In this document: positions 8,455 through 60,735 of the stretch, in pieces | Layout: each line of letters begins with the position of its first letter | How positions within the stretch are numbered: the first letter of the stretch is position 1 | From: Escherichia phage Lw1 | Direction: 5' to 3' (one strand) | Sequence record: KC801932 | DNA length: 64,000 nucleotides | Position numbers and translations under genes: made by a program | Notes under the pieces: generated by a model | What the model saw: the letters and a program-made list of their open reading frames with translations, nothing else | Told to the model about the DNA's origin: nothing | Databases searched by the model: none

Positions 8455-8475
8455 AAGGGGCGCAAGCCCCTTTTG
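8455..8475 (+). terminator. stem-loop plus T-run downstream of wac
   Basis: GGGGC-gcaa-GCCCC followed by TTTT. Confidence 0.55.
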
Positions 8476-8483
8476 AGGATCAT

Positions 8484-16119: not shown

Positions 16120-16141
16120 GTCAAAGGGGCTTTTCAGCCCC

Positions 16142-16149
16142 TATAAATA
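16142..16149 (+). promoter_or_regulatory. T4-type late promoter core TATAAATA upstream of gene 19
   Basis: Exact TATAAATA, 15 nt upstream of the gp19 ATG. Confidence 0.55.
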
Positions 16150-16163
16150 ATCCGAGGTTAAAA

Positions 16164-16649
16164 ATGCTTACTGACATTTTACGCGCCTTTGAATCCGGTG
16201 ATTTCGCACGTCCGAACTTGTTCGAAGTAGAGATCCCGTATCTGGGCAAAAACTTTAAATTCAAATGTAAAGCGGCAACAATGCCAGCGGCTACAGTTGA
16301 AAAAGTCCCTGTAGGCTACCAGAACCGCAAAATTAACGTTGCTGGCGACCGTACCTATGATGACTGGACAATCACAATCTATAACGATGACGCGCACAAT
16401 ACGAGAAACGCACTGGTAGCATGGTCAAATATGCTGCACGGTATGGGTGATCAAATTAGCGGTGATATTCCAGCGAACTACAAAAAAACTGCTACGGTGA
16501 AACAGAAAAACCGTAACGAAGAGATAACCGCTGAACACACCATTCATGGTTTATTCCCGACTAACGTTGGTGAGGTTACTTTGGACTGGGATTCGAATAA
16601 TGAAGTATCAACTTTCGAGTGTACCTTTGCGCTGGACTGGTGGGAATAA
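16164..16649 (+). CDS. 19: tail tube protein gp19
   Basis: 161 aa; size and position match T4 gp19 (163 aa) between sheath and portal; late promoter upstream. Confidence 0.85.
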   Translation: MLTDILRAFESGDFARPNLFEVEIPYLGKNFKFKCKAATMPAATVEKVPVGYQNRKINVAGDRTYDDWTITIYNDDAHNTRNALVAWSNMLHGMGDQISGDIPANYKKTATVKQKNRNEEITAEHTIHGLFPTNVGEVTLDWDSNNEVSTFECTFALDWWE

Positions 16650-16654
16650 AGAGT

Positions 16655-16662
16655 TATAAATA
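16655..16662 (+). promoter_or_regulatory. T4-type late promoter core TATAAATA upstream of gene 20
   Basis: Exact TATAAATA; followed by stem-loop AGGGGTA-gcaa-TACCCCT and a T-run. Confidence 0.5.
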
Positions 16663-16663
16663 C

Positions 16664-16690
16664 AGGGGTAGCAATACCCCTATCATTATT
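16664..16690 (+). terminator. stem-loop with T-run between genes 19 and 20
   Basis: AGGGGTA/TACCCCT stem then ATCATTATTTTT; it lies downstream of the late promoter core, so it could instead be a 5' mRNA hairpin. Confidence 0.4.
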
Positions 16691-16703
16691 TTTCGGAGTT
16701 ACT

Positions 16704-18278
16704 ATGAACTTTTTGGGCTTTGGCAATGTACTTAGCTTTTTCAAGAATTTCGCCCGTGAGGATGAAATTGAACTTGAACAGCAATTAAAAAATGATACAG
16801 GTTCGGTCGCGCCTCCTAAAAATAATGATGGTGCTTACGAGATCGAAACCGATCTGAATAACCAGAAATATGCTGGCGTATTCCAACAATTTTATTCTGG
16901 ACAAGATCCAGCGATCCAAAACAAAGAACAATTAATTAATACGTATCGCGGTATTATGTCTTATCCAGAAGTTGAAAACGCAGTGTCGGAAATTATCGAC
17001 GATGCGATCGTTAACGAACAGGGTAAAGATATCATCACCCTGGATCTGGCTAAAACGAATTTTAGTAAGGCTATTCAAGATAAGATCGTTGAAGAGTTCG
17101 ACAACGTTCTAAATATCTATGACTTTGATAACATGGGCGCACGTCTGTTCCGTGATTGGTATGTGGATTCCCGTATATACTTCCATAAAATCATGCACAA
17201 AGACGAAACCAAAGGTATCCGCGAACTGCGTCAACTTGACCCGCGTTGCATGGAACTGATCCGAGAATCTATCACAGAAACCCTTGATGGTGGCGTGAAA
17301 GTATTCCGGGGTTATCGCGAATTTTTCGTGTATAGCGCTCCTAAAGCTGGCTATACATACAACGGACAGATCTACCAGGCAAACCAGAAGATTAAGATCC
17401 CGCGCTCCGCTATCGTGTACGCTCATTCCGGTCTGGAAGATTGCAGCAACAATATTATCGGATATCTTCACCGCGCTGTCAAGCCTGCAAACCAATTGCG
17501 TTTGCTTGAAGATGCGATGGTGATCTACCGTATTACCCGTGCTCCTGAACGCCGTGTGTTCTATATCGACGTTGGACAGATGGGCGGTAACAAAGCGACT
17601 CAGTACGTGAATAACATTGCACAGGGCTTAAAAAACCGTGTTGTGTATGATGCCCGTACAGGTACTGTTAAAAACCAGCAGAACAACCTGTCAATGACAG
17701 AAGATTACTGGTTGATGCGTCGTGACGGTAAAGCGATTACAGAGGTTTCTACGCTTCCAGGCGGTCAGAACTTCTCTGATATGGATGATATCAAATGGTT
17801 TAACCGTAAGCTCTATGAAGCCCTGCGTGTGCCATTAAGCCGTATGCCTCGCGATGACGGGGGTATGCAAATTGGTGGTGGTGGTGAAATCACCCGTGAT
17901 GAACTCAAATTTAACAAGTTCATACGCACACTGCAAATTCAGTTCAGTCCTGTTCTGTCAGATCCGTTAAAAACGAACCTGATTGCGAAAAAAGTCATCA
18001 CCGAAGATGAATGGGACGAGAACGTTAGCAAAATTTCGTTTATCTTCCAGCAGGATTCATATTATGCGGAAGTAAAAGACATCGAGATCATGGAACGCCG
18101 TCTAACGTTGATGTCTCAGGTCGAGGGTGTAGTTGGGAAATATGTCTCCCATAAATACATCATGAAAGAGATTCTTCGAATGTCCGACGAGGATATTGAC
18201 GAACAAGCGAAATTGATCGAAGAAGAATCTAAAGAAGAACGTTTTAAAAATCCAGAAGCGGAAGAGGAAAACTTTTGA
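16704..18278 (+). CDS. 20: portal vertex protein gp20
   Basis: 524 aa (T4 gp20 is 524 aa); position between tail tube and prohead core genes. Confidence 0.88.
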   Translation: MNFLGFGNVLSFFKNFAREDEIELEQQLKNDTGSVAPPKNNDGAYEIETDLNNQKYAGVFQQFYSGQDPAIQNKEQLINTYRGIMSYPEVENAVSEIIDDAIVNEQGKDIITLDLAKTNFSKAIQDKIVEEFDNVLNIYDFDNMGARLFRDWYVDSRIYFHKIMHKDETKGIRELRQLDPRCMELIRESITETLDGGVKVFRGYREFFVYSAPKAGYTYNGQIYQANQKIKIPRSAIVYAHSGLEDCSNNIIGYLHRAVKPANQLRLLEDAMVIYRITRAPERRVFYIDVGQMGGNKATQYVNNIAQGLKNRVVYDARTGTVKNQQNNLSMTEDYWLMRRDGKAITEVSTLPGGQNFSDMDDIKWFNRKLYEALRVPLSRMPRDDGGMQIGGGGEITRDELKFNKFIRTLQIQFSPVLSDPLKTNLIAKKVITEDEWDENVSKISFIFQQDSYYAEVKDIEIMERRLTLMSQVEGVVGKYVSHKYIMKEILRMSDEDIDEQAKLIEEESKEERFKNPEAEEENF

Positions 18279-18523
18279 TGAAAGAATTTATCGAAGCAAT
18301 CAAAAGCGGCGATCTGGTGGAGGCTAAGAAGCAATTCTACTCCATCATGGAAGACCGTACCGAAGCCCTTCGCCAAGAAATGCGCGTTGAAATTGCAGAA
18401 GCAGTCCGAATCGAAGGTGAAACCGACGAAGACGACAGCGACGATGATAAAGACGACAAAGACGGCGAAAAAGGCGAAAAAGACAAAAAGCCGTCTGAAA
18501 AAGACGACAAAGCCGACGAATAA
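18275..18523 (+). CDS. 67: prohead core protein gp67-like (acidic)
   Basis: 82 aa; highly acidic D/E/K-rich C-terminus; position between portal and gp68/gp21 as in T4. Confidence 0.6.
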   Translation: MMKEFIEAIKSGDLVEAKKQFYSIMEDRTEALRQEMRVEIAEAVRIEGETDEDDSDDDKDDKDGEKGEKDKKPSEKDDKADE

Positions 18524-18535
18524 GAGGTGTAAATA

Positions 18536-18943
18536 ATGCAACTCGAACTCGAAGATATTAGTACCGAACTTATCGAACCCCATTTAACCGAAGCGAAAGC
18601 CCGTGTTGATATTCTGGGGATTGATGAAGGTACAATTAAAATTATCGAAAATTTGGCGGTCGATGAACCTCATTTGGCCCTGGCGATGATGTCCATTGTT
18701 GAGGGTTTGAGTTTAGATGAAGTCATTGTTAAACACGTCGATTCTCGCGGTAATGTGGAACGTAAAAAGGACCGCAAAACCCGTGAACGTAACGCGTATC
18801 AAACAACTGGTCTTACTAAATCTCAACGTCGCCAGATCGCGCGTCGTGCGATGAAAACAAAACGTGCGAATCCTTCTATTACAACCCGCGCACAACGTAA
18901 GCGCAAAAAAGCGCTCCGTAAACGCGCCGCATTAGGGCTATAA
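18536..18943 (+). CDS. 68: prohead core protein gp68-like
   Basis: 135 aa; basic C-terminal tail; position as in T4. Confidence 0.6.
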   Translation: MQLELEDISTELIEPHLTEAKARVDILGIDEGTIKIIENLAVDEPHLALAMMSIVEGLSLDEVIVKHVDSRGNVERKKDRKTRERNAYQTTGLTKSQRRQIARRAMKTKRANPSITTRAQRKRKKALRKRAALGL

Positions 18944-18945
18944 AT

Positions 18946-19593
18946 ATGAATGAATCCCAACTCAATGAAAACGGCGATATGCTGCTAATCGAGGAATGGG
19001 GTTTACCTTGTGCGGATATTTCCGATTCGATTTTAGAATCGGTCGGTGCGTCTAAAGACGGTAAACTTCGGATTGAAGGTATTTTCCTACAGGCTGAAAA
19101 AGTAAACCGTAATAAACGACTGTACCCGAAAAAAGTATTAGAAGAAGCAGTAAATGATTATATCAGAACTCAAGTTAATACCCGTCAAGCACTGGGTGAA
19201 ATGAATCACCCTCCGCGCCCGAATGTGGACCCGCGAAATGCTTGCATCCTCATTGAAAAAATGTGGTGGAAAGGTAATGACGTTTGGGGCCGTGCGGTTG
19301 TTGTCGAAGGTGACAACGCGGATGGTGATAAACTTGCGGCGTTAATTCGTGCTGGTTGGGTTCCTGGTGTTTCTTCTCGCGGACTAGGTAAACTTGCCGA
19401 TTCCGGTAAAGGTTACGGTATCGTACAAGAAGGGTTTAAATTGGCTGTAGGTGTTGATGTAGTTTGGGGGCCAAGCGCTCCAGATGCTTACGTTAAACCA
19501 ATAACCGAATCTCAGCAGACGAAACCGCTTGTTGAGAATATTAGTGCTGATGACGCTTTCAGAAAATTATCTGAACGTTTGAAAGGTCTATAA
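18946..19593 (+). CDS. 21: prohead core scaffold protein and protease gp21
   Basis: 215 aa; position and size match T4 gp21; conserved block GIFLQAEKVNRNKRLYPKKVLEEAV. Confidence 0.85.
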   Translation: MNESQLNENGDMLLIEEWGLPCADISDSILESVGASKDGKLRIEGIFLQAEKVNRNKRLYPKKVLEEAVNDYIRTQVNTRQALGEMNHPPRPNVDPRNACILIEKMWWKGNDVWGRAVVVEGDNADGDKLAALIRAGWVPGVSSRGLGKLADSGKGYGIVQEGFKLAVGVDVVWGPSAPDAYVKPITESQQTKPLVENISADDAFRKLSERLKGL

Positions 19594-19596
19594 ATA
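19589..19596 (+). promoter_or_regulatory. T4-type late promoter core TATAAATA upstream of gene 22
   Basis: Exact TATAAATA, 28 nt upstream of the gp22 ATG. Confidence 0.5.
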
Positions 19597-49331: not shown

Positions 49332-49339
49332 TATAAATA
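49332..49339 (+). promoter_or_regulatory. T4-type late promoter core TATAAATA upstream of gene 34
   Basis: Exact TATAAATA, 31 nt upstream of the gp34 ATG. Confidence 0.55.
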
Positions 49340-49369: not shown

Positions 49370-52300
49370 ATGGTAGCTAAATCATTCCGCGCCACAAGTG
49401 GCCTTGATGCTGCTGGCGAAAAGGTTATCAACGTTGGTAAAGCATCCCGCTCTGTGTTGAGCGACGGCGTGAACGTTGACTTTTTTAACGAATTTAACAC
49501 CGTGCAACAGTATGATCCCGATCGCGGATATTCTGCATACATGGCGATCATCTATGCGCGTCGTATTTGGTATGCTCGTGCTGATATTGCATCACCTGCT
49601 GGGGCATTCGATGAAACAAAATGGATCTCAACTCGTAACGATCCAAAATGGGTTTATAATAACGTAACCAGTGTTGACGGTCTTCCCGTTGAATCTGGCA
49701 CATACTTAATGGCTGATGGACGTTTTTCTGAACTGACCTATGTTCTGCCTGATTCCCCTGTAGAGGGTGATATTGTCACGATTAAAGATGGTGGCGGTAT
49801 GGTTGGTGTCAACAGTATGTTGGTACGTTCCAACACTCGTCAGATCCGTCTTCGTGATGCTCAGTCAAGTTCTTATCGACTGACTCACCCATATATGACC
49901 GTTGCGTTTATTTTTAACGGTAACTTATGGCGCGTTTCTGAAATGCGTGATAACAGGGATTCCCAGTTTGTTAACGCAACTGGTGCGGGTTCTTTCCAGA
50001 TGCAGTCCGGTATGGTTACGTTCCGTAATAGCGGTACTGGTAAAATCACTCTGCAATTGCCGAAATATGCAAACGATGGTGACTCAATCACAACCTATGA
50101 CCTGGATAAACTCAGTTCTGTAAACGTTGCGACTTTGCAGGTTTACCCGAACAGCGGACATACTATTACGTATGATAGCATTAACGGCGTAACCTCTGTT
50201 GCTTCACAGCGTTCCGGTTATGGTATATTCATCTTTGACCAGACTAACAACCGCTGGGTTGTCTATGATGGTGATAACCGCGTTCGTCTGCGTCGTATCA
50301 GTGACGACCTGAACATGCTCCCGAATGATTATGTTTTCGTTACTCCTATTGCTGGGAACCCCCCTACAGTACGTAACGTAACATTAACCCTCCCGCAAGA
50401 TGTTGCAGAAGGGGATCGCGTGTACATCAGTATGTACATGATGGGTAAAACGCAGAACTGTACGATCAAAGTTAAAGATGGTTCTGGTGAAACGATCCGT
50501 ACCAACAAAAACATGATGCAGTTCCCACAGCGTAAAGATTATCCACCTGATGACTGGTTCAGTGTAACTACGCTTTCGTTTAACGCTGATACTGACTATC
50601 TTCCGTATATGGAATTGTCTTATCTGAAAGCAACGAAAGAATGGGTTGTTGCACAATATCGACCACTGGTTGAACGTGTCGATCCGACTAACCGTTCTCG
50701 TCTGGGTGTTATCGCTCTGGCTACTCAAGCAGAAGTGAACAAGAACCATGAAGATACACCGTCCGATGAACTGGCAGTAACCCCGCGCACACTGGCGAAT
50801 AAAACTGCTACTGAAACGCGTCGTGGTATTGCTCGCCTGGCGACAACTGCGGAAGTAAACCAGAACACTACGGCTACTTTTTTGGATGACGTAATCGTAA
50901 CGCCTAAAAAGCTGAACGAACGTACAGCAACAGAAGATCGTCGCGGTATACTGGAAATTGCAACTCAGGCAGAAACAAACGCTGGTACTGATGACAATAC
51001 CGCAATCACGCCTAAAAAGCTCGATGCGCGTCGTGCGTCCGAAACTTTAGCAGGTATCGGTAAACTCGTCACAACAGGCGATACGACTGCTGAGGGGGCT
51101 TTACGTGGGGATGCTGGCACTAACGTCTATAACTTCAATAACGGTGTTGATCTGATCACTCCGAAATCGTTGAACGAAAAGACGGCAACCGAGAAATCAA
51201 AAGGTTTGGTTGTTCTCGCGACTGAAAACGAAGTGGTTACGGGTGCTGCTGCGGGATCTGCTTCAATGCCGATCGTAGTTACTCCTGAAATGCTGCATCG
51301 TAAAACGTCTACTGAGGCGCGGATCGGTTTGATTGAGATCGCTACCCAAACAGAAACAAACGCGGGTACTGATGATTTACGTGCGGTTACTCCTAAGAAA
51401 CTGAACGATCGTAAAGCGACGGAAACCCTTGACGGCATTATTGCACTGGCAACCACTGCGGAAGTTGCGGCAGGGACAGTAACCAATAAGGCAGTTGTTC
51501 CGGTTAAACTGAAAGAGTTCTTCGACGTTACGAGTCATGTTGCTGTTGCGACTGTTGACGGCTTGACTCAATCAGGTACTATCTGGACAACGGTTAATCT
51601 GGGGATCGCGGCTGCTACTGAAACTCAACGTGGTACTTTACGCGTTGCAACTCAGGCAGAAACAAACGCGGGTACTCTTGATACTGTTATCATCACTGCG
51701 AAGAAACTGCAAGCGAAAAAAGCAACTGACACAGCAGAAGGTATCATTCGTTGTGCAACTAACAGCGAAGCGGCTGCGGGTACTTCAACGACTCTTGCAA
51801 TCACTCCGGCTACCATGCAATATCTGAATGGTAACGATCCGGCGTGGGGTGCAACCACTGTTCGTCGTGGTGCTGTGTTTATCACGACTAAATCGAATAC
51901 GTTTATCGGTGATAATCTGGTCGGTTCTACACAGCCAGTGGATAACTATCTGGAAGATTTCTACGCTGTATCGCCTCGCGGTTTGAACTATGCTTTGCAG
52001 AACTTCTTACCTTTGAATGCGACAGCACAGAATAGCCTGAAACTGGGTGGCGTTGTTGCTGCAAGCTGGATGCGTCGTGATGCTGATCAAACCGTAACGG
52101 GCAACAACACGTTCAACGGTACGAGTAACTTTGTGGGTAACGTAACCACTAACGGAACTCTGACGGCTAACGCGGCGGTGACTGTAAACAATACCGTAAC
52201 GACGAACAACAACATTAACCAGTCTGCGAAAGCAAACACTGTTTATGCAAATACGGTTCTGAGTTCTGCGGCTGCTGGTACTAAAAACCTGCTTCGTACT

Positions 52301-53029
52301 TTCCGTGGTGGTACAACGGATACAACGTGGCATGAAACGGTACAAGCAAGTGCATATCGCCTGGCGACTGGTACAACGGATACTGTTGATGTTCTGACGG
52401 TTGGTGATACCACAAACGGTGTTCTGGCTTACTACGGTAACACGTTGCGCCTGAACAGCAAAGCACTGGCGAATATTAACGCAAACGGTGATGTTGCTAT
52501 TGCAAGTGACGCAAGTCCTTCGATACAATTACGAACCGCTGCAACAAACGGCTGGAACGGGGTTGTTATCAGTAACGACAACGGAACTACCACAGCGACG
52601 GTGATCAACACTCGCAACTTTACCCAACACCTTGACAGTACCTATGTCAACGTAACGGGTGACACGATGACTGGCACACTGTCAGTTAACGTTAGCGGTA
52701 CGGGTGGACGCTTTACCAGTGTAAGCGGTACAGCACATATTCAGGCAGGTGATTTCGCTGGGGCAACTCAGAAAATGCGTCTGACTGGTATCAATGACCA
52801 GGTATTGACTGAATTTAACATCAATATCACCGATTACAATAAAGCGATGATCAACGGCAACCTGATCTATCATGCAGGTCGTAAGCCTACTCCGGCAGAA
52901 ATCGGGGCGGTTGCGGTTGCAGGTTCGACGGTTGATACGCTGGTTGTTCGTGACTACATCAAGATCGGAAACGTGAAAATCTACGCAAATCCAGTCACTA
53001 AGACTTGTGAATTTGAGTGGGAGGAATAA
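49370..53029 (+). CDS. 34: long tail fibre proximal subunit gp34
   Basis: 1219 aa; N-terminus FRATSGLDAAGEKVINV...GVNVDF...NTVQQYDPDRGY...KPAGAFDETKW matches recalled T4 gp34; many repeats of the fibre motif A-T-Q/T-A-E-x-N-A-G-T-DD-x-x-A-x-TPKKL. Confidence 0.88.
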   Translation: MVAKSFRATSGLDAAGEKVINVGKASRSVLSDGVNVDFFNEFNTVQQYDPDRGYSAYMAIIYARRIWYARADIASPAGAFDETKWISTRNDPKWVYNNVTSVDGLPVESGTYLMADGRFSELTYVLPDSPVEGDIVTIKDGGGMVGVNSMLVRSNTRQIRLRDAQSSSYRLTHPYMTVAFIFNGNLWRVSEMRDNRDSQFVNATGAGSFQMQSGMVTFRNSGTGKITLQLPKYANDGDSITTYDLDKLSSVNVATLQVYPNSGHTITYDSINGVTSVASQRSGYGIFIFDQTNNRWVVYDGDNRVRLRRISDDLNMLPNDYVFVTPIAGNPPTVRNVTLTLPQDVAEGDRVYISMYMMGKTQNCTIKVKDGSGETIRTNKNMMQFPQRKDYPPDDWFSVTTLSFNADTDYLPYMELSYLKATKEWVVAQYRPLVERVDPTNRSRLGVIALATQAEVNKNHEDTPSDELAVTPRTLANKTATETRRGIARLATTAEVNQNTTATFLDDVIVTPKKLNERTATEDRRGILEIATQAETNAGTDDNTAITPKKLDARRASETLAGIGKLVTTGDTTAEGALRGDAGTNVYNFNNGVDLITPKSLNEKTATEKSKGLVVLATENEVVTGAAAGSASMPIVVTPEMLHRKTSTEARIGLIEIATQTETNAGTDDLRAVTPKKLNDRKATETLDGIIALATTAEVAAGTVTNKAVVPVKLKEFFDVTSHVAVATVDGLTQSGTIWTTVNLGIAAATETQRGTLRVATQAETNAGTLDTVIITAKKLQAKKATDTAEGIIRCATNSEAAAGTSTTLAITPATMQYLNGNDPAWGATTVRRGAVFITTKSNTFIGDNLVGSTQPVDNYLEDFYAVSPRGLNYALQNFLPLNATAQNSLKLGGVVAASWMRRDADQTVTGNNTFNGTSNFVGNVTTNGTLTANAAVTVNNTVTTNNNINQSAKANTVYANTVLSSAAAGTKNLLRTFRGGTTDTTWHETVQASAYRLATGTTDTVDVLTVGDTTNGVLAYYGNTLRLNSKALANINANGDVAIASDASPSIQLRTAATNGWNGVVISNDNGTTTATVINTRNFTQHLDSTYVNVTGDTMTGTLSVNVSGTGGRFTSVSGTAHIQAGDFAGATQKMRLTGINDQVLTEFNINITDYNKAMINGNLIYHAGRKPTPAEIGAVAVAGSTVDTLVVRDYIKIGNVKIYANPVTKTCEFEWEE

Positions 53030-53034: not shown

Positions 53035-54615
53035 ATGGCGAATAACGAATTCATGGCGTTATTCGGCCCTGATAGTTTCACGGCGAATGTGTTTTCAGAA
53101 GCAAACGCCGTGAAATATCGGCTTGTTGTGCGTGGGGCTAATTTAAGCTCTACGCTCAACACGGTCGAGGTTTCTATTAACGGGGCTGATATTATCAACC
53201 GAAACACACAACGCGATCGCGGAATTAACCTAGCTATTATTGACGGAACAACTTTAGCATTATTGGATCACAAGACATTTGATATGTACGGCGATCCTGC
53301 TACGAACGGGAATGCACTTAGGGATTATCTGGATTCTCTTCCCGCGAATAGAATTGTGTGTTTTTATACCTACGACGCAATAGGCGGTGATGCTAACTTT
53401 ACTACAATCATGCGTAAGTTGGGATCTGTTGCATGGCCCGAAGCAAGATATTTTTCAAATGACGATCGTCGTCGTTCATCATATTCTGCGATCTATTCAT
53501 CAACCATGAAGAAAATCTGTATGGAAAACTTTGTGGGTGGTGCTGGTTCTGCTTCAAAGGATGACACCAGAAGTTTTGTTGAAGTCGTATTTGACGAATT
53601 CAGCGATATAGGCGTGACGGGTATTCCTGAACGTATGGTTGATGACGTAAACACATATCAAAACAGTGGTACAATGTACGGATATCATGCGTATGGTTTA
53701 TGGAATGTTGGAACCGATGTATTCCGTGGGGATATATTCAAAGTTACAGCAGACGTTTACTGTTCGCAAGAACTCCGAGATGCTGGCGGTGATACATATC
53801 TTTATATCTGGACTGAAACGACTGGTTCGCAATGGGTAACGTCTTCACTGATCCGAACTTTGGGTCTTGCTGCTGATACATGGCATTCGTTGTCTATGTA
53901 TTTCACGATCCCACAGGGAACAGAAAACGCTAAGATGGGATGTCAGGTTTATCACTATCCGTCAACTGTTAGCGTTGGTTTGTCTCAGTGTCGTAATGTT
54001 CAGATCTCAAAAGTACCACGCGAAGAAGTAAATCGTAATGGCGCTGCAATTGGTGTGAACGGTGTACGTATGCAGACGCTTTCCGAAGTCGATGATGCTG
54101 GAACCGAAAACCCGATTGAACAGTTGCTTTCATTGCCTGTATCACCTGCTGGAACACCGAGCAATAAAACGATTGTTTCACATAACTTCGCAGAACTCGA
54201 TTATCTTGTTTCTGATCCGGTTGAATACACGTCAACGGATACAACGAAATACTTGGTTAAAGAGTGGGCGAATAAACAGTATGATTCTGCTACCGTTTCT
54301 CTAAGCAGTGTGGGGGCTAAACCTGGCGATACAATGAGAATTGCTATCCAGGCCAAACGCGATGCAACGGCGATTTCTAACGATAAACGTTCGTTGGTTA
54401 CTGCACAATTCCTTGATGCTAACGGTCAGTATCTGTCAACTGATATACGCATTCAAGATGTAAGCACTATTCCGAACGTGTATACATTCTACAAGATGGA
54501 AGGTGTTATTCCTGATAATGCTGTTACATTTAACTTCGGGTTTTATCGTTATCCGAATAATACACGAACAGGATCTGTGTCTGTTAAAGACGTTAAACTG
54601 TCTATCGTTCGTTAA
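53035..54615 (+). CDS. 35: long tail fibre hinge protein gp35
   Basis: 526 aa; N-terminus MANNEFMALFG....FSEANAVKYRL and NRIV motif align with recalled T4 gp35 N-terminus; larger than T4 gp35. Confidence 0.72.
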   Translation: MANNEFMALFGPDSFTANVFSEANAVKYRLVVRGANLSSTLNTVEVSINGADIINRNTQRDRGINLAIIDGTTLALLDHKTFDMYGDPATNGNALRDYLDSLPANRIVCFYTYDAIGGDANFTTIMRKLGSVAWPEARYFSNDDRRRSSYSAIYSSTMKKICMENFVGGAGSASKDDTRSFVEVVFDEFSDIGVTGIPERMVDDVNTYQNSGTMYGYHAYGLWNVGTDVFRGDIFKVTADVYCSQELRDAGGDTYLYIWTETTGSQWVTSSLIRTLGLAADTWHSLSMYFTIPQGTENAKMGCQVYHYPSTVSVGLSQCRNVQISKVPREEVNRNGAAIGVNGVRMQTLSEVDDAGTENPIEQLLSLPVSPAGTPSNKTIVSHNFAELDYLVSDPVEYTSTDTTKYLVKEWANKQYDSATVSLSSVGAKPGDTMRIAIQAKRDATAISNDKRSLVTAQFLDANGQYLSTDIRIQDVSTIPNVYTFYKMEGVIPDNAVTFNFGFYRYPNNTRTGSVSVKDVKLSIVR

Positions 54616-54634
54616 GGGGCTTTGGCCCCTTTTT
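54614..54634 (+). terminator. rho-independent terminator after gene 35
   Basis: AAGGGGC-tttg-GCCCCTT followed by TTTTC. Confidence 0.7.
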
Positions 54635-54718
54635 CATAAATACAGTCATTATAGGAGAATTTTATGGCTGATTTGAAATGGGGGCGCTGGTATCTGGAGT
54701 GCGTCAAACCTTCCGTTA

Positions 54719-56965
54719 ATGCCGTCCGGTGGACAAATAACGTATAAAGGCTGGCGTATCTATACCGAAAATGATCGCCCGACAGCGGAAGATATAGGCG
54801 CATTATCACTTGCTAATGGTGGTACTGTAAACAATGATACAACATTCAATAAAGACGTAACCGTAGGCGTTAACGCTGTTGTAGGGGCGTTGTTTTCAAG
54901 ATCGTATATTGATATTACTCGATCAGGAACTGAACCAAACATTGTATTTCGTCGCTCAGACGTTACTACTACGCCAACAACAGAACAAGCCCTTTTAATA
55001 ATTAACGCTATGAATGGGGCTAATCTTACTGCTGGTACGTTTAATATTCATGCGCGACCTGATGGTGGAAACAAGGTTTATATTACTGCGTATAAATCAG
55101 GATCGCAAAATACCTCATTGACTCTTGATTCACAGACACAATCGGTAACGGTAGAACAAGGTACTTTCCGTGTGCAAGGAAATACTGTTCTTGCTGGTAC
55201 TACGGCAACCAGTATGGCTGTATCTGGTGCGTTGACTGCGAATACCGTTACTCCGACGAACTGGTCAAATCATGACGTTCGTTATATGACGGGTATTCCT
55301 AACAACATAACAGGAACAAGCCTGGGTGCTGCTGAGGTAACTGAAAAGAACGATGTCCTGTCTGTATCAGGTAATATTGTTGATGGGCCTTACGGGAATA
55401 CCACGTATAACGGTCAGGTGTTGAACTATCGCCGTACTTCAAACGCTGGTAATGCTCTTACTCAGTTTTATCTGGATAATGGTGTATTCCATGTTCGTAG
55501 CGGTTCTGGTTCCCCCGGTGCGTGGTCGTGGATTGGTGGTAATGCTAACGGATGGCGCAAGGTTTACGACGAAAATAATAAGCCCACTCCGGCAGAAATC
55601 GGGGCGTTGAAAAACACAACCGATACGTTGAACGGTTCGTTAACTATCAATAGTGGTTCTTCGTTTGCTGGACTTTCTATAAGAAGTACCGCTGGACAAA
55701 GTGAATATCAGTTTGGAACAGCAACAAACACTGGTCATATCGGTATCGGAACAGTAGATCTGTATATTGGAAACCTTACCTCTGGTAAGTATATCCAAAT
55801 GTCGCATAACGGGGCTTTGACTTATTCAGGCGCGAAGATTTATCGTTCTGATGATAAACCAACTCCGAAAGAAATTGGCGCACCGACAACAGAAACTGCG
55901 TATATTAGTAATAACGATTCTATATGGGTTAAAATTGGCACTGCTACCGTAGTGCAATCAGCATCAACAATGAGCATCCGTATTACTGGTGGTTCCGGTT
56001 ATAATGCAGAACCTTCACAAGCACAATATGCGGATATTATCATTCGTAGCAACAACGGGGAATCGAAATCAATCGGCATTTCTATGTTCCGTACTGGTGC
56101 TTCTGCTCCTGGACAAGTTGGTTGGATTTATACAGGGACAGGGGATGATTATGACATCTATGTAGCTGTTGGCCCGTATCAACAAGGTGTTATGTTAACG
56201 TGGGATGGGACAGCACCAACTAAGTTTGTGCATAACATTGTTCCTGGAACAGGAACACAACCTGCTGGACTTACTCTGGGTATCACAAGCACATTGTTAA
56301 ACAGTGTGGATAGAGCAGTAACCAGTAGTGCTGTATTGAACGGTAAAACAACGCTTGCTGGCTATCTTCAATTGGATGGTACTGAGAGCACTATTCGAGG
56401 GATATACGGCGATGTCATTTTAAGGGATCATAATAATGGTAACGTGTCAGTTTCTGCTTCTCGTATAAATGGTACTCCTGGTACTCTTTATGTAGGTTAT
56501 CATAACCCAGGCATTGGTATATATTGTGCGGGTATTCGATTAGAAACTCCTACATTTGCCGCGAGTACGCTAACATGTAATGCTACATTATCATGTAACA
56601 GCAATATAACCGCTACTGGTGAAATTTATACAGCGAACAACGGCAACTTTAACGATGTGTATATTCGTTCCGATGAAAAACTGAAAAGTAATTTCAAAAA
56701 GATTGAAAACGCGTTGGATAAAGTTGATTTGATTGATGGTTTAACTTACGATAAAGCAAGTTATATCGGGGGCGAAACTGTTAATCGCGAAGCGGGTTTG
56801 ATTGCACAGCAACTACAGAAAGTATTACCGGAAGCTGTTGCGGTCAGTCGTGATGCAAAAGATAACGAAGTATTGGTGATCTCGCCTACGGCTACAATCG
56901 CTTTGCTGGTTAATGCGATCAAGGAACTGCGTGAAGAAGTAAGGGAACTCAAATCCCGAATTTAA
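54719..56965 (+). CDS. distal tail fibre protein A (gp36/gp37-like) with C-terminal intramolecular chaperone (peptidase S74-type) domain; 5' end apparently frameshifted
   Basis: 748-aa track ORF; the conserved fibre N-terminus MADLK is encoded from ATG 54664 (GGAG 8 nt upstream) in the -1 frame and joins this frame across a G5 run at 54680-54684; C-terminus YIRSDEKLKSNFKKIENAL...EAGLIAQQLQKVLPEAV matches the self-cleaving chaperone domain of endosialidase/T5 pb1-type fibres. Confidence 0.7.
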   Translation: MPSGGQITYKGWRIYTENDRPTAEDIGALSLANGGTVNNDTTFNKDVTVGVNAVVGALFSRSYIDITRSGTEPNIVFRRSDVTTTPTTEQALLIINAMNGANLTAGTFNIHARPDGGNKVYITAYKSGSQNTSLTLDSQTQSVTVEQGTFRVQGNTVLAGTTATSMAVSGALTANTVTPTNWSNHDVRYMTGIPNNITGTSLGAAEVTEKNDVLSVSGNIVDGPYGNTTYNGQVLNYRRTSNAGNALTQFYLDNGVFHVRSGSGSPGAWSWIGGNANGWRKVYDENNKPTPAEIGALKNTTDTLNGSLTINSGSSFAGLSIRSTAGQSEYQFGTATNTGHIGIGTVDLYIGNLTSGKYIQMSHNGALTYSGAKIYRSDDKPTPKEIGAPTTETAYISNNDSIWVKIGTATVVQSASTMSIRITGGSGYNAEPSQAQYADIIIRSNNGESKSIGISMFRTGASAPGQVGWIYTGTGDDYDIYVAVGPYQQGVMLTWDGTAPTKFVHNIVPGTGTQPAGLTLGITSTLLNSVDRAVTSSAVLNGKTTLAGYLQLDGTESTIRGIYGDVILRDHNNGNVSVSASRINGTPGTLYVGYHNPGIGIYCAGIRLETPTFAASTLTCNATLSCNSNITATGEIYTANNGNFNDVYIRSDEKLKSNFKKIENALDKVDLIDGLTYDKASYIGGETVNREAGLIAQQLQKVLPEAVAVSRDAKDNEVLVISPTATIALLVNAIKELREEVRELKSRI

Positions 56966-56969
56966 GAAA

Positions 56970-56990
56970 AGCCCTACGGGGCTTTTTCTT
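56970..56990 (+). terminator. rho-independent terminator
   Basis: AGCCC-tacg-GGGCT followed by TTTTTC. Confidence 0.7.
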
Positions 56991-56992
56991 TT

Positions 56993-57000
56993 TATAAATA
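56993..57000 (+). promoter_or_regulatory. T4-type late promoter core TATAAATA upstream of the second distal fibre gene
   Basis: Exact TATAAATA, 27 nt upstream of ATG 57027. Confidence 0.55.
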
Positions 57001-57026
57001 TCATAAAAGCATTTGAGGATCTAATA

Positions 57027-59495
57027 ATGGCAGATTTAAAAACGGGTACTACCATAGGCGGTAATACTATCTGGAGTCAGGCGAATTTACCCTTACTCAC
57101 TAACGGAAACACATTAACGTATAAAGGCTTTAAAGTCTATACTGAAAACGACAAACCAACGAAAGCCGAAATCGGTCTGGGTAACGTAACAAACGATGCA
57201 CAGGTTAAAAAGTCCGGCGATGAAATGACAGGAGATTTGACGTTAAAGAATAACTCGCAACTTACCGTCCCTCGCTGTATTAACCTGGTATCAGACACAA
57301 CCAATTTAGCCCCTTGGTTATTAACGACTCGTTCAGATAATAACGCGGTTACAGATCCGTTTCCATCACAGCATACACGTACATTTACGTTGTTCATCAA
57401 TACGAAGTCAAATACTTCTGATCCTGGTGGTGGCGCAAACCTTGCTGCTCTATTATCACATCAGGCAACTACTGGGGCTGGTTCTATCGAACTGCAAGCA
57501 TACGATGCACCAAACAAGACAACTGGCGCTACGGGCATTCTACGCGCTCAGATTGGGCTTAATGGTTGGGATGGTTCAATTAACCTTGCCGGTGCTTCGT
57601 TAAACGTTGGAATGACAACGACAATTAACTCTAATTTATACGCGAATGAACTCATTTCGAAAGGGGCAGGAAACCGTAACGTAACTATGCAAGACACAAA
57701 CGGCAACGAACTAGCTATGCTGTTTGCAGATACGGGTAAGAACCTGTATGTTCGTACTGGTGGTTCATATGTATCTCGTTTCGCTGCTGATGGCACTCTT
57801 ATTCTGGCTAACGGCTTGACTGTTCCGCGTCAGGTATTTGTTAACGGTGCTTCACTTCCAGTGAACAATGGTCAAGTTCGACTTGATACAAGCGCTGATG
57901 GAAACGCTGTTGGTGACGGTGCAACGCATCTTGGTATGAAATTAGAAGATGGGAAATATTATCATTATTTCCGTGGTGCTGGTGTGATGTACATTGACAT
58001 GAAAGGTGGAATATCTTCTTCAACCCCGTTGTATATGAATGGAGTTGATCAAGCAATACCTAAAGTTGAAATGCTATCTACTGGTGCTGCTGGTGCTAAA
58101 AACTTTTTGCGGCGGTTTCGTGGTGGTCTTCCTGATATTATATGGCATGAAACTGTTCAGGGTGGTGATTACCGATTAGCAATAGGGGATACCGATGCGG
58201 ATTATCAGTTAAGAATTAGTGCTGATGGTGCTAATAGAGGTGGTTATGTATTTGGTGGTACGTTTACGGCTGATCGCGGTAATGATGGATTCAAGATCCG
58301 TTATAAACCTGATACTGAATCAGCAATGTTCCAGATCTGGAACAGGGATACATCAGTATTGAACTCTTATTTCGGATACGGGTCAAGTAATCAGGCAACA
58401 GTTAACCTGTATAACCGTTTAGGTGATATTGGCGTTTCTACTCCAAACGCGGCGTTCCGTCTGGATAATACTACGTTAACTCTTGGTAACTCTTCATCTG
58501 CGGAAGCCAGTCAACGTGCGTTTACTATCAGGAACTGGGGAAACAACTCGGCGGGTGGATACCGTGCTGCTGTACTTGAAGTTGGTGACGGCACAAGTTA
58601 TCACTTTTATAGCCAACGCCGTTCTGATAACTTAGTCGAAATTGCATTTGTTGGCGATGCTTATGTCAATGGGACTACATTTCTACAGAATAACGCGCGT
58701 GTTCGTGGCAGTGACGGTATTTCTATCGAAGCGGATACAAACTGTCATGTGTGGTTTAGAACCGCTGGCGGTGCGGAAAAAGCAGTATTATATGCAGAGA
58801 ATAACGGCAGCGTAAAACTTCGTACATCAAACCAGCAATATTCTCTTACGATCGCTGACGGCATGATCCTCGCTACTGGACAACAGACAACTGGAGACAC
58901 TAGAGGGTTAATCCGTGGTGCTGTTACTGGTGGTGCGTTTGTCGCATGGCGCGATCGTCCTGCTGGTTTGCTGCTGGATTGTCCTGATTCACGAAATCTA
59001 GCATACGCTATTTGGAAAGCTACTCATTGGGGTGAACAACATATCGCATCAATGGATGTCCATGCGGGTGGCGGCAATCCAGTGGTAATTATGCACGTTG
59101 GTGGCGGTGAATTTACCTTTAACAACGTTGGTTACTTTAGCACTAACGGCGCTATGTATGCAGGTGGAAACGGCGATTTTAACGATGTCTATATTCGTTC
59201 TGATATCAGACTGAAATCTAACCTGGTTGAACTGAAAGATGCACTGAGTAAAGTTGAACAGCTTAAAGGTTATATCTATGATAAGAAACAGAAAATCGAA
59301 GATGAAGAACCACAGCATCGTGAAGCGGGTATTATTGCTCAGGATCTTCAAAAGGTTTTACCGGAAGCAGTAAGAGAAAACGAAGAAACCGGAATGTTGA
59401 CGATCTCCCCGTCAAGTGTTAACGCGCTTCTGATTACGGCAATCAATGAATTGCGTGAACGTCTGGAAGCAATCGAACGGAAAATAGGGGCGTAA
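57027..59495 (+). CDS. distal tail fibre protein B (gp36/gp37-like) with C-terminal intramolecular chaperone (peptidase S74-type) domain
   Basis: 822 aa; N-terminus MADLKTGTTIGGNTIWSQANLPL...TYKGFKVYTENDKPT parallels T4 gp36 N-terminus (MADLKVGSTTGGSVIW...YKSFKIYSEYNKP); internal FRGG...WHETVQ joint motif shared with gp34; C-terminus YIRSDIRLKSNL...EAGIIAQDLQKVLPEAV. Confidence 0.8.
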   Translation: MADLKTGTTIGGNTIWSQANLPLLTNGNTLTYKGFKVYTENDKPTKAEIGLGNVTNDAQVKKSGDEMTGDLTLKNNSQLTVPRCINLVSDTTNLAPWLLTTRSDNNAVTDPFPSQHTRTFTLFINTKSNTSDPGGGANLAALLSHQATTGAGSIELQAYDAPNKTTGATGILRAQIGLNGWDGSINLAGASLNVGMTTTINSNLYANELISKGAGNRNVTMQDTNGNELAMLFADTGKNLYVRTGGSYVSRFAADGTLILANGLTVPRQVFVNGASLPVNNGQVRLDTSADGNAVGDGATHLGMKLEDGKYYHYFRGAGVMYIDMKGGISSSTPLYMNGVDQAIPKVEMLSTGAAGAKNFLRRFRGGLPDIIWHETVQGGDYRLAIGDTDADYQLRISADGANRGGYVFGGTFTADRGNDGFKIRYKPDTESAMFQIWNRDTSVLNSYFGYGSSNQATVNLYNRLGDIGVSTPNAAFRLDNTTLTLGNSSSAEASQRAFTIRNWGNNSAGGYRAAVLEVGDGTSYHFYSQRRSDNLVEIAFVGDAYVNGTTFLQNNARVRGSDGISIEADTNCHVWFRTAGGAEKAVLYAENNGSVKLRTSNQQYSLTIADGMILATGQQTTGDTRGLIRGAVTGGAFVAWRDRPAGLLLDCPDSRNLAYAIWKATHWGEQHIASMDVHAGGGNPVVIMHVGGGEFTFNNVGYFSTNGAMYAGGNGDFNDVYIRSDIRLKSNLVELKDALSKVEQLKGYIYDKKQKIEDEEPQHREAGIIAQDLQKVLPEAVRENEETGMLTISPSSVNALLITAINELRERLEAIERKIGA

Positions 59496-59520
59496 TGCCC
59501 CTCTTTAAAGAGGTAAAATT

Positions 59521-60045
59521 ATGGCAATTGTTGGAGTACCCGGATGGATCGGGTCGTCTGCGGTAGCAGAAACAGGACAGCGTTGGATGTCTGCGGCTGG
59601 TAGTGCTGTTCGTATTGGTGCGCCATTATGGATGTCGCAAATGGCAAACCAATCAGTATATAACATTTCCATTCCGATTTTTGAACGTTATTATAATGGT
59701 ATTCGTTATCGTGGGTGTTGGGGGACGGGTTGGAACTTCCCATATTCTAAACCTGGTTGGAACGCTACTCCTGGTGGTAGTTTTAACGGGCTGGCTTACG
59801 GGACTTGTGTTGCAGTGCAAAAACATCTCGATGGCGAATATAGCGTATTAACTATTCAAAACGGTCCTGCTGCAAACTTCCGACTCACTACTGATGACGG
59901 CGCGGTGTTCAACTTCGTTGATACCGGACGATATGACGCTGGTTATAGAAACTACAAAATCGATCCGACTCAACATTTTGTATGGTTCGAATATCTTAAC
60001 GCTCGTGTAGGACAAACAAGGCAAGGATTGGTAGCTATAAGATAA
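59521..60045 (+). CDS. 38: gp38-like protein (N-terminal fibre-tip attachment domain only)
   Basis: 174 aa; N-terminus MAIVGVPGWIGSSAVAETGQRWMS closely matches the recalled N-terminus of T2-type gp38 adhesins (MAVVGVPGWIGSSAVNETGQRWMS); lacks the long glycine-rich receptor-binding segment. Confidence 0.6.
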   Translation: MAIVGVPGWIGSSAVAETGQRWMSAAGSAVRIGAPLWMSQMANQSVYNISIPIFERYYNGIRYRGCWGTGWNFPYSKPGWNATPGGSFNGLAYGTCVAVQKHLDGEYSVLTIQNGPAANFRLTTDDGAVFNFVDTGRYDAGYRNYKIDPTQHFVWFEYLNARVGQTRQGLVAIR

Positions 60046-60093: not shown

Positions 60094-60735
60094 ATGGCGC
60101 TATTACAAGATAAATTGGCGGTGCTTGAACGGGTAATATCGTTCATCATGGCAGTCAAAACATGGAAACAACTTTTCATTAAATTGGTTCTTATCGTTAC
60201 TATATTCATTATGTTTGTTACGTGGTACAAGTGGGATGACTTATTCGCAGTCTGGAAATCATCGAGCGTCATAGACGTTCCGACGATGGAGGTTGAAAAA
60301 GCAAAAAAGTTTGAATCCGCATCCATTGAACAGTTAAACATAGTGCATTTAACTACGGGTGCGGATTTTTCGGCAGTCTTTGGGTTCAGACCTAAGAATG
60401 TTAATTATTTTGTTGATATAATTGCGTATGAAGGGAAGTTACCACACCAGATAAATCCGAAAAATTTGGGGGGCTATCCTATAGACAAAACATCGGAAGA
60501 ATACAACAGACATATAAACGGGCTGTACTACGTTTCACACGTCGCCAGCCCGTATCTTCCGACCAAAGATCTTGTTCCGGTTGCCTATACCTTTAGTTGT
60601 CCTTACTTCAATCTCGAAAACTACTATTCAGGATCAATCTTAATGGAATGGTATAAGCAGAAGCCCGAAGTCACCGATATGAAGTTAATGATCGTGTGCA
60701 ATCAGGCCGCTAGAATTTTAGGCAGGATTCGATGA
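60094..60735 (+). CDS. t: holin T
   Basis: 213 aa; one N-terminal transmembrane segment; EQL.IVH..... ADFSAV..FRPKN.NYFVDIIAYEGKLP, CPYFNL.N.Y.G and CNQAARILGR match recalled T4 holin T. Confidence 0.88.
   Translation: MALLQDKLAVLERVISFIMAVKTWKQLFIKLVLIVTIFIMFVTWYKWDDLFAVWKSSSVIDVPTMEVEKAKKFESASIEQLNIVHLTTGADFSAVFGFRPKNVNYFVDIIAYEGKLPHQINPKNLGGYPIDKTSEEYNRHINGLYYVSHVASPYLPTKDLVPVAYTFSCPYFNLENYYSGSILMEWYKQKPEVTDMKLMIVCNQAARILGRIR

Follow-up and report, generated by a model that had tools for sequence, protein, structure and literature searches.

The distal tail-fibre genes of Escherichia phage Lw1 (KC801932) probably encode two distal half-fibres that are alternatives at a single gp35 joint, of which only the fibre built from the second gene and gp38 is likely to be made properly in this phage; we give this reading a probability of roughly 0.6. 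Judged by its sequence, the locus is the distal long-tail-fibre module of an RB43/Miller-like Pseudotevenvirus, a relative of T4. It is an ordinary, already described RB43-type locus, and its single local twist is a 14-bp deletion in the first of the two fibre genes (gene 1 below, the second being gene 2). The window is the whole 64-kb stretch of DNA that was analysed, and the features concerned lie in it as follows.

49370–53029, plus strand: gene 34, proximal half-fibre, 1219 aa, with 45% identity to T4 gp34 over 966 aa and TATAAATA at 49332–49339
53035–54615, plus strand: gene 35, knee or hinge, 526 aa, similar to T4 gp35 and the presumed docking partner of gp36-type N-termini
54616–54634, plus strand: terminator-like hairpin GGGGC-TTTG-GCCCC followed by TTTTT, directly 3' of the gene 35 stop, read from the sequence
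54635–54642, plus strand: CATAAATA, with one mismatch to the T4 late-promoter core, before gene 1 and conserved across the genus
54664–54747, plus strand: gene 1 stub, with the native start, AGGAG at 54653–54657 and MADLK, followed by out-of-frame codons up to a stop (27 codons in total)
54677–56965, plus strand: main frame of gene 1 (RB43 ‘36-37.1’, annotated ‘36’), with ATG 54719 as first ATG of a 748-aa ORF
55637–56638, plus strand: exchanged distal cassette, approximately aa 307–640 of gene 1, unlike gene 1 of any sequenced relative
56669–56962, plus strand: predicted C-terminal intramolecular chaperone of gene 1, from Ser651 to the end, 98 aa, with Lys656 (Pfam S74; 6F45_A)
56966–56987, plus strand: 9-bp hairpin and T-run, terminator-like, between genes 1 and 2, nearly invariant across 22 relatives
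56993–57000, plus strand: TATAAATA, late-promoter core of gene 2 by sequence match
57027–59495, plus strand: gene 2 (RB43 ‘36-37.2’, annotated ‘37’), a complete distal half-fibre by homology and its intact ORF, 822 aa
59199–59492, plus strand: predicted C-terminal intramolecular chaperone of gene 2, from Ser725 to the end, 98 aa, with Lys730 (Pfam S74; 6F45_A)
59521–60045, plus strand: gene 38, monomeric tip adhesin, 174 aa, Pfam Gp38_N (PF21721)

Citrobacter phage Miller is ~89% identical to the 64-kb window. Nucleotide identity to RB43, Miller and CfP1 is 83–89% with the gene order 34-35-36-37-38-t kept, and an IMG/VR search returned CfP1 and RB43 as its only matches; no tRNA genes were found across the window. 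The duplication of the fibre gene is already on record, the RB43 pair having been named gp36-37.1 and gp36-37.2 in GenBank in 2003 (AY266307) and described by Trojet et al. in 2011 with “function unclear” (PMC3157838). Lw1 shows the orthologous RB43-type synteny 34-35-[36-37.1]-[36-37.2]-38-t, and RB43, Miller, CfP1, RB16, GAP161 and others have the identical gene order, with promoter and terminator elements before each gene and, as in Lw1, an S74 domain terminating both fibre genes. Of the two copies in Lw1 only gene 2 is an intact ORF from MADLK: gene 1 carries a frameshifting 14-bp deletion at codon 6, and differs further in possessing its own 1-kb distal cassette, which is missing from 22 of the 22 relatives compared.

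A preliminary description of this DNA had proposed two tandem paralogous fibre genes, each beginning with a gp36-type N-terminus. Two tandem plus-strand fibre ORFs are indeed present and paralogous (54719–56965, 748 aa; 57027–59495, 822 aa), and the description of the N-terminus stands for gene 2; gene 1 is not one intact gene, its ATG 54664 being out of frame. Residues 1–89 of gene 2 match residues 1–80 of T4 gp36 (E 8e-15) and its interior matches T4 gp37 and gp34 shaft segments, while gene 1 matches the T4 gp36 N-terminus at E 2e-14 after repair of the frame. The T4 gp36 N-terminal domain finds exactly two tblastn matches in the window, at 54680–54865 and 57027–57293. The T4 gp37 N-terminus (residues 1–120) and T4 gp38 have no match there, and the T4 gp36 C-terminal domain (residues 101–221) has no significant one, the best E being 0.088. 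By this combination of matches both genes are 36-37 fusions; they are old paralogues of each other. Neither has the short size of T4 gp36 (~220 aa), gene 1 measuring 748–766 aa. The two products are 48% identical over 120 aa at their C-termini and 42–48% identical over ~45–68 aa at their N-termini, with no significant similarity across the ~600 central residues between, in agreement with the earlier remark that the central parts differ. Heterotrimers of the duplicated products were one suggestion of Trojet et al. (PMC3157838); for Lw1 they were rejected because these central residues are unrelated. Over its full length gene 2 is 80–84% identical to gene 2 of Miller and RB16.

Both fibre proteins end in an S74 intramolecular chaperone, as had been predicted from end motifs that are present in both. 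A Pfam check of the C-termini assigned gene 1 residues 651–707 to PF13884 Peptidase_S74 with 51.6 bits (profile positions 1–57 of 58, E 1.2e-13) and gene 2 residues 725–783 with 59.6 bits (positions 1–58 of 58, E 3.8e-16), the curated cut-off being 22 bits, and in both proteins the domain forms the last 98 residues, at the extreme C-terminus. The S16 gp37 chain 6F45_A matches the gene 1 C-terminus at E 5.7e-9 and matches that of gene 2 as well. Each has a Ser-x4-Lys dyad (S651-D-E-K-L-K656 and S725-D-I-R-L-K730), and the cleavage position predicted earlier, before SDEKLK and SDIRLK, would agree with Ser651 and Ser725. The motif VYIRSD..LK is invariant in 10 paralogues, and gene 1 and gene 2 hardly differ in the residues that directly precede the predicted site, (N/D)FNDVYIR. 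The S74 profile also matches S16 gp37, 8JOV and the self-cleaving domain of MYRF, with the Asp and Lys of S-D-x3-K aligned in all three; the catalytic Ser is aligned in S16 and 8JOV, and MYRF chain 7DC3 has Ala there. The role of the Ser/Lys dyad is established for endosialidase and MYRF. With endosialidase and T5 pb1 (MEROPS/Pfam S74), and with MYRF, the Lw1 proteins share the full-length PF13884 domain, the Ser-x4-Lys arrangement and the C-terminal position; the passenger is a sialidase or T5 fibre in the former systems but a T-even-type fibre in Lw1, where cleavage is predicted from sequence. The chaperone is not a special feature of this phage, since T-even relatives as a rule carry such a self-cleaving domain on gp37 (PMC9569957).

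Nor has the chaperone replaced a gp38-dependent system, as the preliminary description implied, because a T2/S16-type gene 38 (Gp38_N, E 2.7e-20), overlooked there and part of the system, follows gene 2. The two genes are separated by 25 nt that contain neither a promoter nor a terminator. The S16 gp38 chain 6F45_D matches residues 8–45 of the Lw1 protein, in which, on alignment with S16 gp38 residues 6–44, Trp9, Trp22 and Trp37 correspond to the three tryptophans described as attaching the S16 adhesin (PMC6851490). Past residue 45 no similarity to S16 gp38 was found, the polyglycine-sandwich domain included; RB43 gp38 is likewise without polyglycine-sandwich similarity (PMC3157838). Lw1 gp38 is 88–92% identical to gp38 of RB43, Miller, CfP1, Xman, GuL6 and IME-CF2, and its C-terminal domain (residue 51 onward) is 94% identical to that of RB16. 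Host-range mutations of RB43 map to gp38 Q100 (PMC3157838), and Gln100 is retained in Lw1. In common with the distal fibre of T2, T6 and S16 (PDB 6F45), Lw1 has S74 on the fibre protein, the three-Trp N-domain of gp38 and the adhesin gene directly downstream; it differs in that gp36 and gp37 are fused, that there are two such chains and that gp38 ends in a domain with no relation to the polyglycine sandwich. Aeh1 has been named together with RB43 as a case of g37 duplication (PMC3157838), but each Aeh1 copy has its own small downstream ORF whereas Lw1 has one gp38 gene. T4 itself shares with Lw1 the gp36-type N-terminus, some gp37/gp34 shaft segments, the position of the locus and the holin gene t downstream. 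Compared with the T4 set of gp36, gp37 and gp38/gp57A, Lw1 is without the gp36/gp37 junction, the His-box needle tip and the T4-type gp38 chaperone, folding being assigned instead to the intramolecular chaperone.

The gene 2 product would thus provide the whole distal half-fibre in a single chain, docking on the gp35 knee through its gp36-type N-terminus and continuing as a gp37/gp34-type shaft. Trimer formation is expected to be nucleated by its C-terminal S74 chaperone, which would afterwards cut itself off at Arg724|Ser725 by means of the Ser725/Lys730 dyad, after which one molecule of the gp38 adhesin would cap the exposed tip, inserting its three tryptophans, and would carry receptor specificity.

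A promoter-like element after a terminator-like hairpin stands before each fibre gene, and this arrangement is conserved in 22 of the 22 related loci examined. The hairpin behind gene 35 is kept in all relatives, with only its loop varying, and its counterpart in phage Miller is annotated as a terminator; phage ENT3 has a perfect TATAAATA at the gene 1 promoter position. The late-promoter core and preceding terminator earlier ascribed to gene 2 were both recovered (56993–57000 and 56966–56987), and GAGG lies at 57015–57018, upstream of ATG 57027. TATAAATA occurs 9 times in the 64-kb window against 2.7 expected, a count reached in 0 of 100 shuffles, while a sigma-70 promoter scan of the window stayed at chance level (24 found, 25.6 expected).

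Comparison with RB43 and Miller places the 14-bp deletion after codon 5 of gene 1, at ~54679/54680, and it leaves ATG 54664 and the long ORF in different frames. The first of these runs for 27 codons to a stop at 54745–54747; the second opens at 54677 and has its first start codon at ATG 54719. Programmed frameshifting was considered and rejected, as the overlap of 54677–54745 is without a slippery run or a rare-codon or stop-codon context. The deletion could be an assembly error, and is not a typical base-calling error. The N-terminal 310–350 aa of gene 1 are 79–84% identical to gene 1 of Miller and RB43, and since the remainder is still a clean 748-codon ORF, any inactivation would be recent.

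In the distal part of gene 1, DNA homology to Miller ends at 55636 and restarts at 56639. The cassette DNA between has no match among 50,697 phage records, and a word-indexed protein search with the cassette gave nothing at E <= 1e-5; an exhaustive HMMER search returned one relative at 59% identity and ~130 distant ones. From approximately aa 306 to its end, chaperone included, gene 1 is 48% identical over 490 aa (BLASTP) to P0001, a classical gp37-type protein of 1055 aa, and the cassette alone is 59% identical to P0001 (phmmer). Within the cassette lies a knob domain of ~160 aa, of a type widespread among Stf-like and T-even fibres. Several different distal modules are found in gene 1 across the genus. 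Single-sequence AlphaFold2 without an alignment gave three C-terminal helices for residues 348–748, at a mean pLDDT of 35.8, too low for the model to be used.

Across the genus gene 1 is intact in 19 of 23 loci and broken in four (Lw1, RB43 AY967407, UPEC03 and IME-CF2), while gene 2 is intact in all 23. IME-CF2 has lost a single A within an A-run, which resembles a homopolymer sequencing error, and the single-base deletion in RB43 AY967407 (TT to T) may be another. Simple base-calling error does not account for at least two of the disruptions, the 14-bp deletion in Lw1 and a 91-bp duplication in UPEC03. This pattern suggests that gene 1 has a function in the genus yet can be dispensed with. 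Trojet et al. noted that fibre length fits only one gp37 trimer (PMC3157838). Gene 1 is an ancient paralogue, retained across the genus and built to the same plan: it has a late promoter of its own, the gp36-type N-terminus, Ser651/Lys656 in its S74 domain and an exchangeable distal cassette. It most likely specifies an alternative distal half-fibre competing for the same gp35 joint, so that virions could carry mixed fibres. The deletion in Lw1 would cut off the bulk of the gene from its promoter, ribosome-binding site and start, and from the first few codons. Given that deletion, Lw1 probably produces no attachable gene 1 fibre and probably depends on gene 2 and gp38 for infection.

The preliminary description saw in the two genes a possible dual host-range determinant, with both expressed and both products on the virion as alternative tips of two receptor specificities, which would require the gene 1 frameshift to be an artefact or to be bypassed. 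Conservation of gene 1 in most loci, together with its own conserved promoter-like element and ribosome-binding site, speaks for this, as do the exchange of the cassette, which implies selection on binding, and an ORF that is clean apart from the 14-bp gap. Such a gap is, however, atypical of base-calling error, the gene offers no recognisable frameshift signal, and the context for a restart at ATG 54719 is poor. The mapped RB43 host-range mutations, moreover, all lie in gp38 (PMC3157838). We found no virion evidence for either protein, and our search of the literature yielded neither a virion proteome of a Pseudotevenvirus nor a functional study of the fibre-gene duplication. With gene 1 frameshifted at codon 6 the idea is weakened in Lw1, and we regard it as unlikely for this phage.

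More speculatively, the gene 1 half-fibre may be optional and virions mosaic, their two fibre types differing in receptor specificity, with the repeated mutation near the 5' end of gene 1 (Lw1, RB43 AY967407, UPEC03, IME-CF2) acting as a crude switch of host range; Lw1 would be a natural ‘off’ variant with a newly imported cassette. We would put forward this extension of the alternative half-fibre reading only tentatively, and think it doubtful.

A branched fibre, with both half-fibres on each knee, has its model in the T5-like phages DT57C and DT571-2, in which two adjacent fibre genes, LtfA and LtfB, stand in place of one as in Lw1, and in which two chaperone-bearing fibre proteins are proposed to form a branch (PMC4728585). 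The enlarged gp35 might offer a second docking site: it has 526 aa against 372 aa in T4, and although residues 5–351 are 26% identical to T4 gp35 (E 2e-26), residues 62–132 correspond to Pfam ILEI and the protein falls in PHROG 1154 ‘proximal connector’, its ~175 C-terminal residues have no T4 counterpart. Yet LtfB of DT57C is proposed to hang on LtfA, whereas the Lw1 proteins share the same type of N-terminus, suggesting one shared docking site, and no second site could be identified from the sequence of the first fibre. Branching has not been reported for RB43-like virions, whose fibres Trojet et al. describe as of ordinary size (PMC3157838), and we consider a branch improbable.

Translation of gene 1 might also begin at ATG 54719, a codon created by a T-to-A change that is found in the Lw1 genome alone, 40 nt downstream of the deletion and ahead of an otherwise intact ORF. 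A restart there might compensate for the deletion, and the resulting protein, lacking the first 23 residues, would either still assemble or act off the virion, for example as a free receptor-binding or decoy trimer. Against it, the closest GGAG stands 19 nt 5' of this codon and, like the ATG itself, is paired in a predicted local hairpin, so that this ATG, the only one downstream, appears to lack a usable ribosome-binding site; the residues lost are, besides, the part best conserved with T4 gp36. We think such a product quite improbable.

Least probable of all is a serial fibre in which the gene 1 product, acting like gp36, would link gp35 end to end with that of gene 2, as the GenBank names ‘small’ and ‘large’ distal subunit imply: the gene order is that of T4 36-37 and the mature chains (650 and 724 aa) come near T4 gp36 plus gp37 at 1247 aa, but the gene 2 N-terminus is gp36-type and not gp37-type, the window holds no gp36 C-terminal domain, gene 1 has its own cleavable chaperone and gp37-like tip, the fibre length suits a single gp37 trimer (Trojet et al., PMC3157838), and the disruption of gene 1 in four sequenced phages is at odds with the essential role that a serial fibre would give it.

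The Lw1 locus leaves the current understanding of T-even fibres unchanged. Fibre loci decide which bacteria can be infected and are the usual target of host-range engineering, and at this locus gp38, not the fibre bodies, is the first host-range determinant to examine. Both genes are complete 36-37 fusions, and to call them ‘small’ and ‘large’ distal subunit, as GenBank does, is misleading. Gene 1 is dispensable often enough to occur broken in sequenced phages, which counts against a serial fibre, and natural gene 1 knock-outs such as Lw1 make the purpose of the duplication, a question raised in 2011, approachable.

Over 54600-59600, nucleotide identity is 81-86% to long-tail-fibre loci from the genus Pseudotevenvirus, among them those of the Citrobacter phages Miller and CfP1 and the Escherichia phages RB16 and RB43, and Miller matches the 20 kb upstream of the fibre region at 89.6% identity across 92% of its length. 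By sequence, the window is assigned to a relative of RB43 and Miller, a species-level member of the genus Pseudotevenvirus. The order of the fibre genes is that of RB43, Miller and T4, and no tRNA or tmRNA genes were detected by ARAGORN across the entire window (1-64000).

Gene order in the fibre locus
49370-53029: gene 34
53035-54615: gene 35
54664/54719-56965: gene 1 (native start ATG 54664; RB43 counterpart 36-37.1)
57027-59495: gene 2 (RB43 counterpart 36-37.2)
59521-60045: gene 38
60094-60735: holin t

The preliminary description proposed two tandem open reading frames, each beginning with a gp36-type N-terminus and ending in a self-cleaving intramolecular chaperone, with differing central parts. 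Both frames are present (54719-56965 and 57027-59495), and the N-terminal 100 residues of T4 gp36 have exactly two matches in the whole window, at 57027-57293 (E 4e-16) and 54680-54865 (E 6e-14); however, ATG 54664 of gene 1 is out of frame with its 748-codon reading frame, so that the claim of a gp36-type start holds for gene 1 only in part. The N-terminal 120 residues of T4 gp37, the gp36 C-terminal domain and T4 gp38 gave no significant match anywhere in the window, and segments resembling the shafts of T4 gp37 and gp34 are also found in gene 2. Taken together, these matches indicate that both genes encode single-chain gp36–gp37 fusions and that Lw1 is without the T4-type gp36/gp37 joint. 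RB43 has exactly the same make-up, its genes having been named 36-37.1 and 36-37.2 in a 2003 GenBank entry from the Krisch laboratory (AY266307), with the remark ‘amino-terminal region similar to amino-terminus of gp 36’; the labels ‘small’ and ‘large’ distal subunit in later genome records are misleading. Gene 34 (~aa 1005-1030) and gene 2 (aa 355-385) both carry the segment (K/T)N(F/L)LR.FRGG..D..WHETVQ...YRLA.G.TD, a further shuffled shaft module that a 1055-aa gp37-type protein (P0001) and the gene 1 copies of RB43 and Miller also contain.

Each protein has a full-length C-terminal match to Pfam Peptidase_S74 (PF13884), at residues 651-707 of gene 1 (E 1.2e-13) and 725-783 of gene 2 (E 3.8e-16). 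The two proteins are 48% identical over the last 120 residues and 42-48% over the N-terminal ~45-68 residues, and the parts between were confirmed to lack significant similarity. VYIRSD..LK is invariant among ten aligned C-termini (gene 1 and gene 2, five phages), and the profile of this alignment retrieved three solved structures: S16 gp37 (6F45_A, E 6e-13), the tail fibre 8JOV, and 7DC3, the self-cleaving domain of human myelin regulatory factor (MYRF). Within S-D-x3-K, Asp and Lys align with each of these structures; Ser aligns with S16 and 8JOV but is replaced by Ala in the MYRF chain. From endosialidase, T5 pb1 and MYRF, we take the Ser/Lys pair to be the predicted catalytic dyad, with the cut just N-terminal to Ser; this pair is Ser651/Lys656 in gene 1, where the motif begins at codon 56669, and Ser725/Lys730 in gene 2, where it begins at codon 59199, and the cut would leave a C-terminal fragment of 98 residues in each case. 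The residues just before this predicted site are nearly identical in the two proteins. Golomidova et al. described a self-cleaving chaperone on gp37 as the rule in T-even relatives, so the domain on gene 2 is the normal state and no peculiarity.

The gene 38 product is a 174-residue protein with a Gp38_N attachment domain (E 2.7e-20), which aligns to residues 6-44 of the S16 gp38 chain in 6F45, a solved complex of gp37 and gp38. Its Trp9, Trp22 and Trp37 correspond in position to three S16 tryptophans that are lodged in pockets of the gp37 trimer base (PMC6851490), whereas the remainder is unrelated to the S16 polyglycine domain. Trojet et al. (2011) described the 174-aa gp38 of RB43 as T6-like at the N-terminus, with a novel specificity domain at the C-terminus, and found Gln100 altered in all host-range mutants of RB42 and RB43, infection requiring LPS core and OmpF (PMC3157838). 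Gln100 is retained in the window, whose gp38 shares 88-92% identity with its counterparts in RB43, Miller, CfP1, Xman, GuL6 and IME-CF2 and, over the C-terminal domain, 94% with RB16 gp38. In EC-F1 (8399-9211 of fibre locus L021) and UPEC03 (8556-9368 of L007), gp38 has 270 aa and only its first ~45 residues in common with the 172-174-aa gp38 of other Pseudotevenviruses, while the gene 2 tips are still of the GAP161 class; the adhesin specificity domain has thus been swapped independently of the fibre tip.

The fate of the duplication was compared across the window and 22 related fibre-locus sequences. Gene 2 is intact in all 23 loci and gene 1 in 19; the four broken copies are an upper bound, since at least the IME-CF2 change, in a homopolymer, may be a sequencing error, and the single-base deletion of AY967407 might be another.

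Broken copies of gene 1 (first breaks all inside the first ~210 nt)
Window: 14-bp deletion
RB43 genome AY967407 (L001): 1-nt deletion at ~nt 55, absent from AY266307 and RB43-GVA
IME-CF2 (L009): one A lost from an A-run at ~nt 200, and a second break
Escherichia phage UPEC03 (MW250785, L007 3932-4320): 91-bp tandem duplication near the 5' end, splitting the reading frame

In most relatives, gene 1 and gene 2 are homologous over the last 260-400 residues (33-48% identity); in GAP161, Citrof4 and the window, homology is confined to the N-terminus and the chaperone. The searchable literature yielded neither a virion proteome nor a functional study of the duplication.

Alignment to two independent RB43 sequences and Miller places the 14 missing bp of the window directly after codon 5 of gene 1, which in relatives begins MADLK-LGTTL-GGAAIW. 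The 54664 frame now encodes MADLKWGRWYLECVKPSVNAVRWTNNV and stops at 54745-54747, and the long frame opens only at 54677, behind a TGA codon. Its first start codon, ATG 54719, arose by a T-to-A change (RB43 and Miller both have TTG); the closest GGAG lies 19 nt upstream and, like the ATG itself, is paired in the local structure prediction. No slippery sequence hinting at programmed frameshifting was seen in the 54677-54745 overlap. In the present sequence, the body of gene 1 is cut off from its promoter-like element, its ribosome-binding site and its most conserved N-terminal residues, and an attachable product is probably not expressed from this genome.

Elements upstream of gene 1
54616-54634: terminator-like GGGGC/GCCCC hairpin and TTTTT
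54635-54642: promoter-like element CATAAATA
54653-54657: AGGAG
54664: native ATG

This layout resembles that upstream of gene 2, where the previously proposed late-promoter core, TATAAATA, lies at 56993-57000 and a terminator scan recovered the proposed terminator as a hairpin and T-run at 56966-56987. Both upstream regions are kept in all 22 related loci, among which the hairpin ahead of gene 1 differs only in its loop. The core occurs nine times in the window (2.7 expected by chance), one copy standing 31 nt ahead of gene 34; five of the nine perfect copies fall within 4.1 kb on the + strand (15493-19596), probably marking a group of small late genes. Gene 2 and gene 38 are directly coupled, separated by 25 nt that hold no terminator. 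A GGGGC-GTAAT-GCCCC hairpin (59486-59502) overlaps the gene 2 stop codon 20 nt 5' of gene 38; no T-run follows it on the + strand, and it may affect translational coupling of genes 37 and 38 rather than ending transcription.

The distal part of gene 1 is isolated among the 42 tips compared. DNA homology to Miller stops at 55636 and restarts at 56639, and the intervening 1 kb had no DNA-level match in any phage record searched. Its best relative among 1.84 billion cluster representatives is P0001, which begins with a classical gp37-type N-terminus, carries an S74 domain itself, and is 59% identical over the cassette (phmmer) and 48% identical to gene 1 over 490 aa (BLASTP, in an alignment that extends through the chaperone domain). 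Some 130 further, more distant proteins have in common with the cassette a ~160-residue knob domain, also carried by lambda Stf-like and T-even fibres. The pattern is one of cassette exchange with the flanks conserved, familiar from the evolution of fibre genes. A short motif, (V/I)Y-x3-4-KPT-x2-(E/D)IG(A), occurs at the gp34 C-terminus (~52900-52960), in both gp36-type N-termini and twice within gene 1 (ORF aa 281-296 and 361-388), and, in many unrelated fibre proteins (P0001, P0004, P0015 and P0037 of the protein search), stands ahead of the knob domain; as the left cassette border (55636/55637) sits just after one copy, the motif may act in recombination or as a joint.

By homology to S16 and T2, gene 2 would yield a complete distal half-fibre, the chaperone trimerising its chains and then removing itself, gp38 capping the tip and binding the receptor, and the gp36-type N-terminus linking the fibre to gp35 and gp34. 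Gp38 may cap one of the two fibres or both. Gene 1 is built like gene 2, is old, and is maintained with diversifying tips, and so has a function in the genus. Given the same type of N-terminus and the deposited phage genomes with a broken gene 1, the simplest model is that the two products are alternative distal half-fibres for the same knee; according to Trojet et al., only one gp37 trimer fits the fibre length (PMC3157838). A branched fibre is a less probable reading, with a precedent in the T5-like phage DT57C (PMC4728585) and a gp35 exceeding that of T4 by ~150 residues in its favour. This gp35 has 526 aa (372 in T4), aligning to T4 gp35 over residues 5-351 and matching Pfam ILEI (PF15711) at residues 62-132; the ~175 C-terminal residues, which are without a T4 counterpart and conserved in the genus (PHROG 1154 spans the full length), could be a sugar-binding or docking domain. 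A serial fibre, with the two products end to end, is unlikely because it would render gene 1 essential. Heterotrimers are implausible in Lw1, the central 600 residues being unrelated.

The tandem gene pair, its 36-37 fusion nature and the gp38 adhesin are already on record, and T-even gp37 proteins are well known to carry a self-cleaving chaperone; what is specific to the window is a gene 1 that combines a foreign distal cassette with a 14-bp frameshifting deletion.
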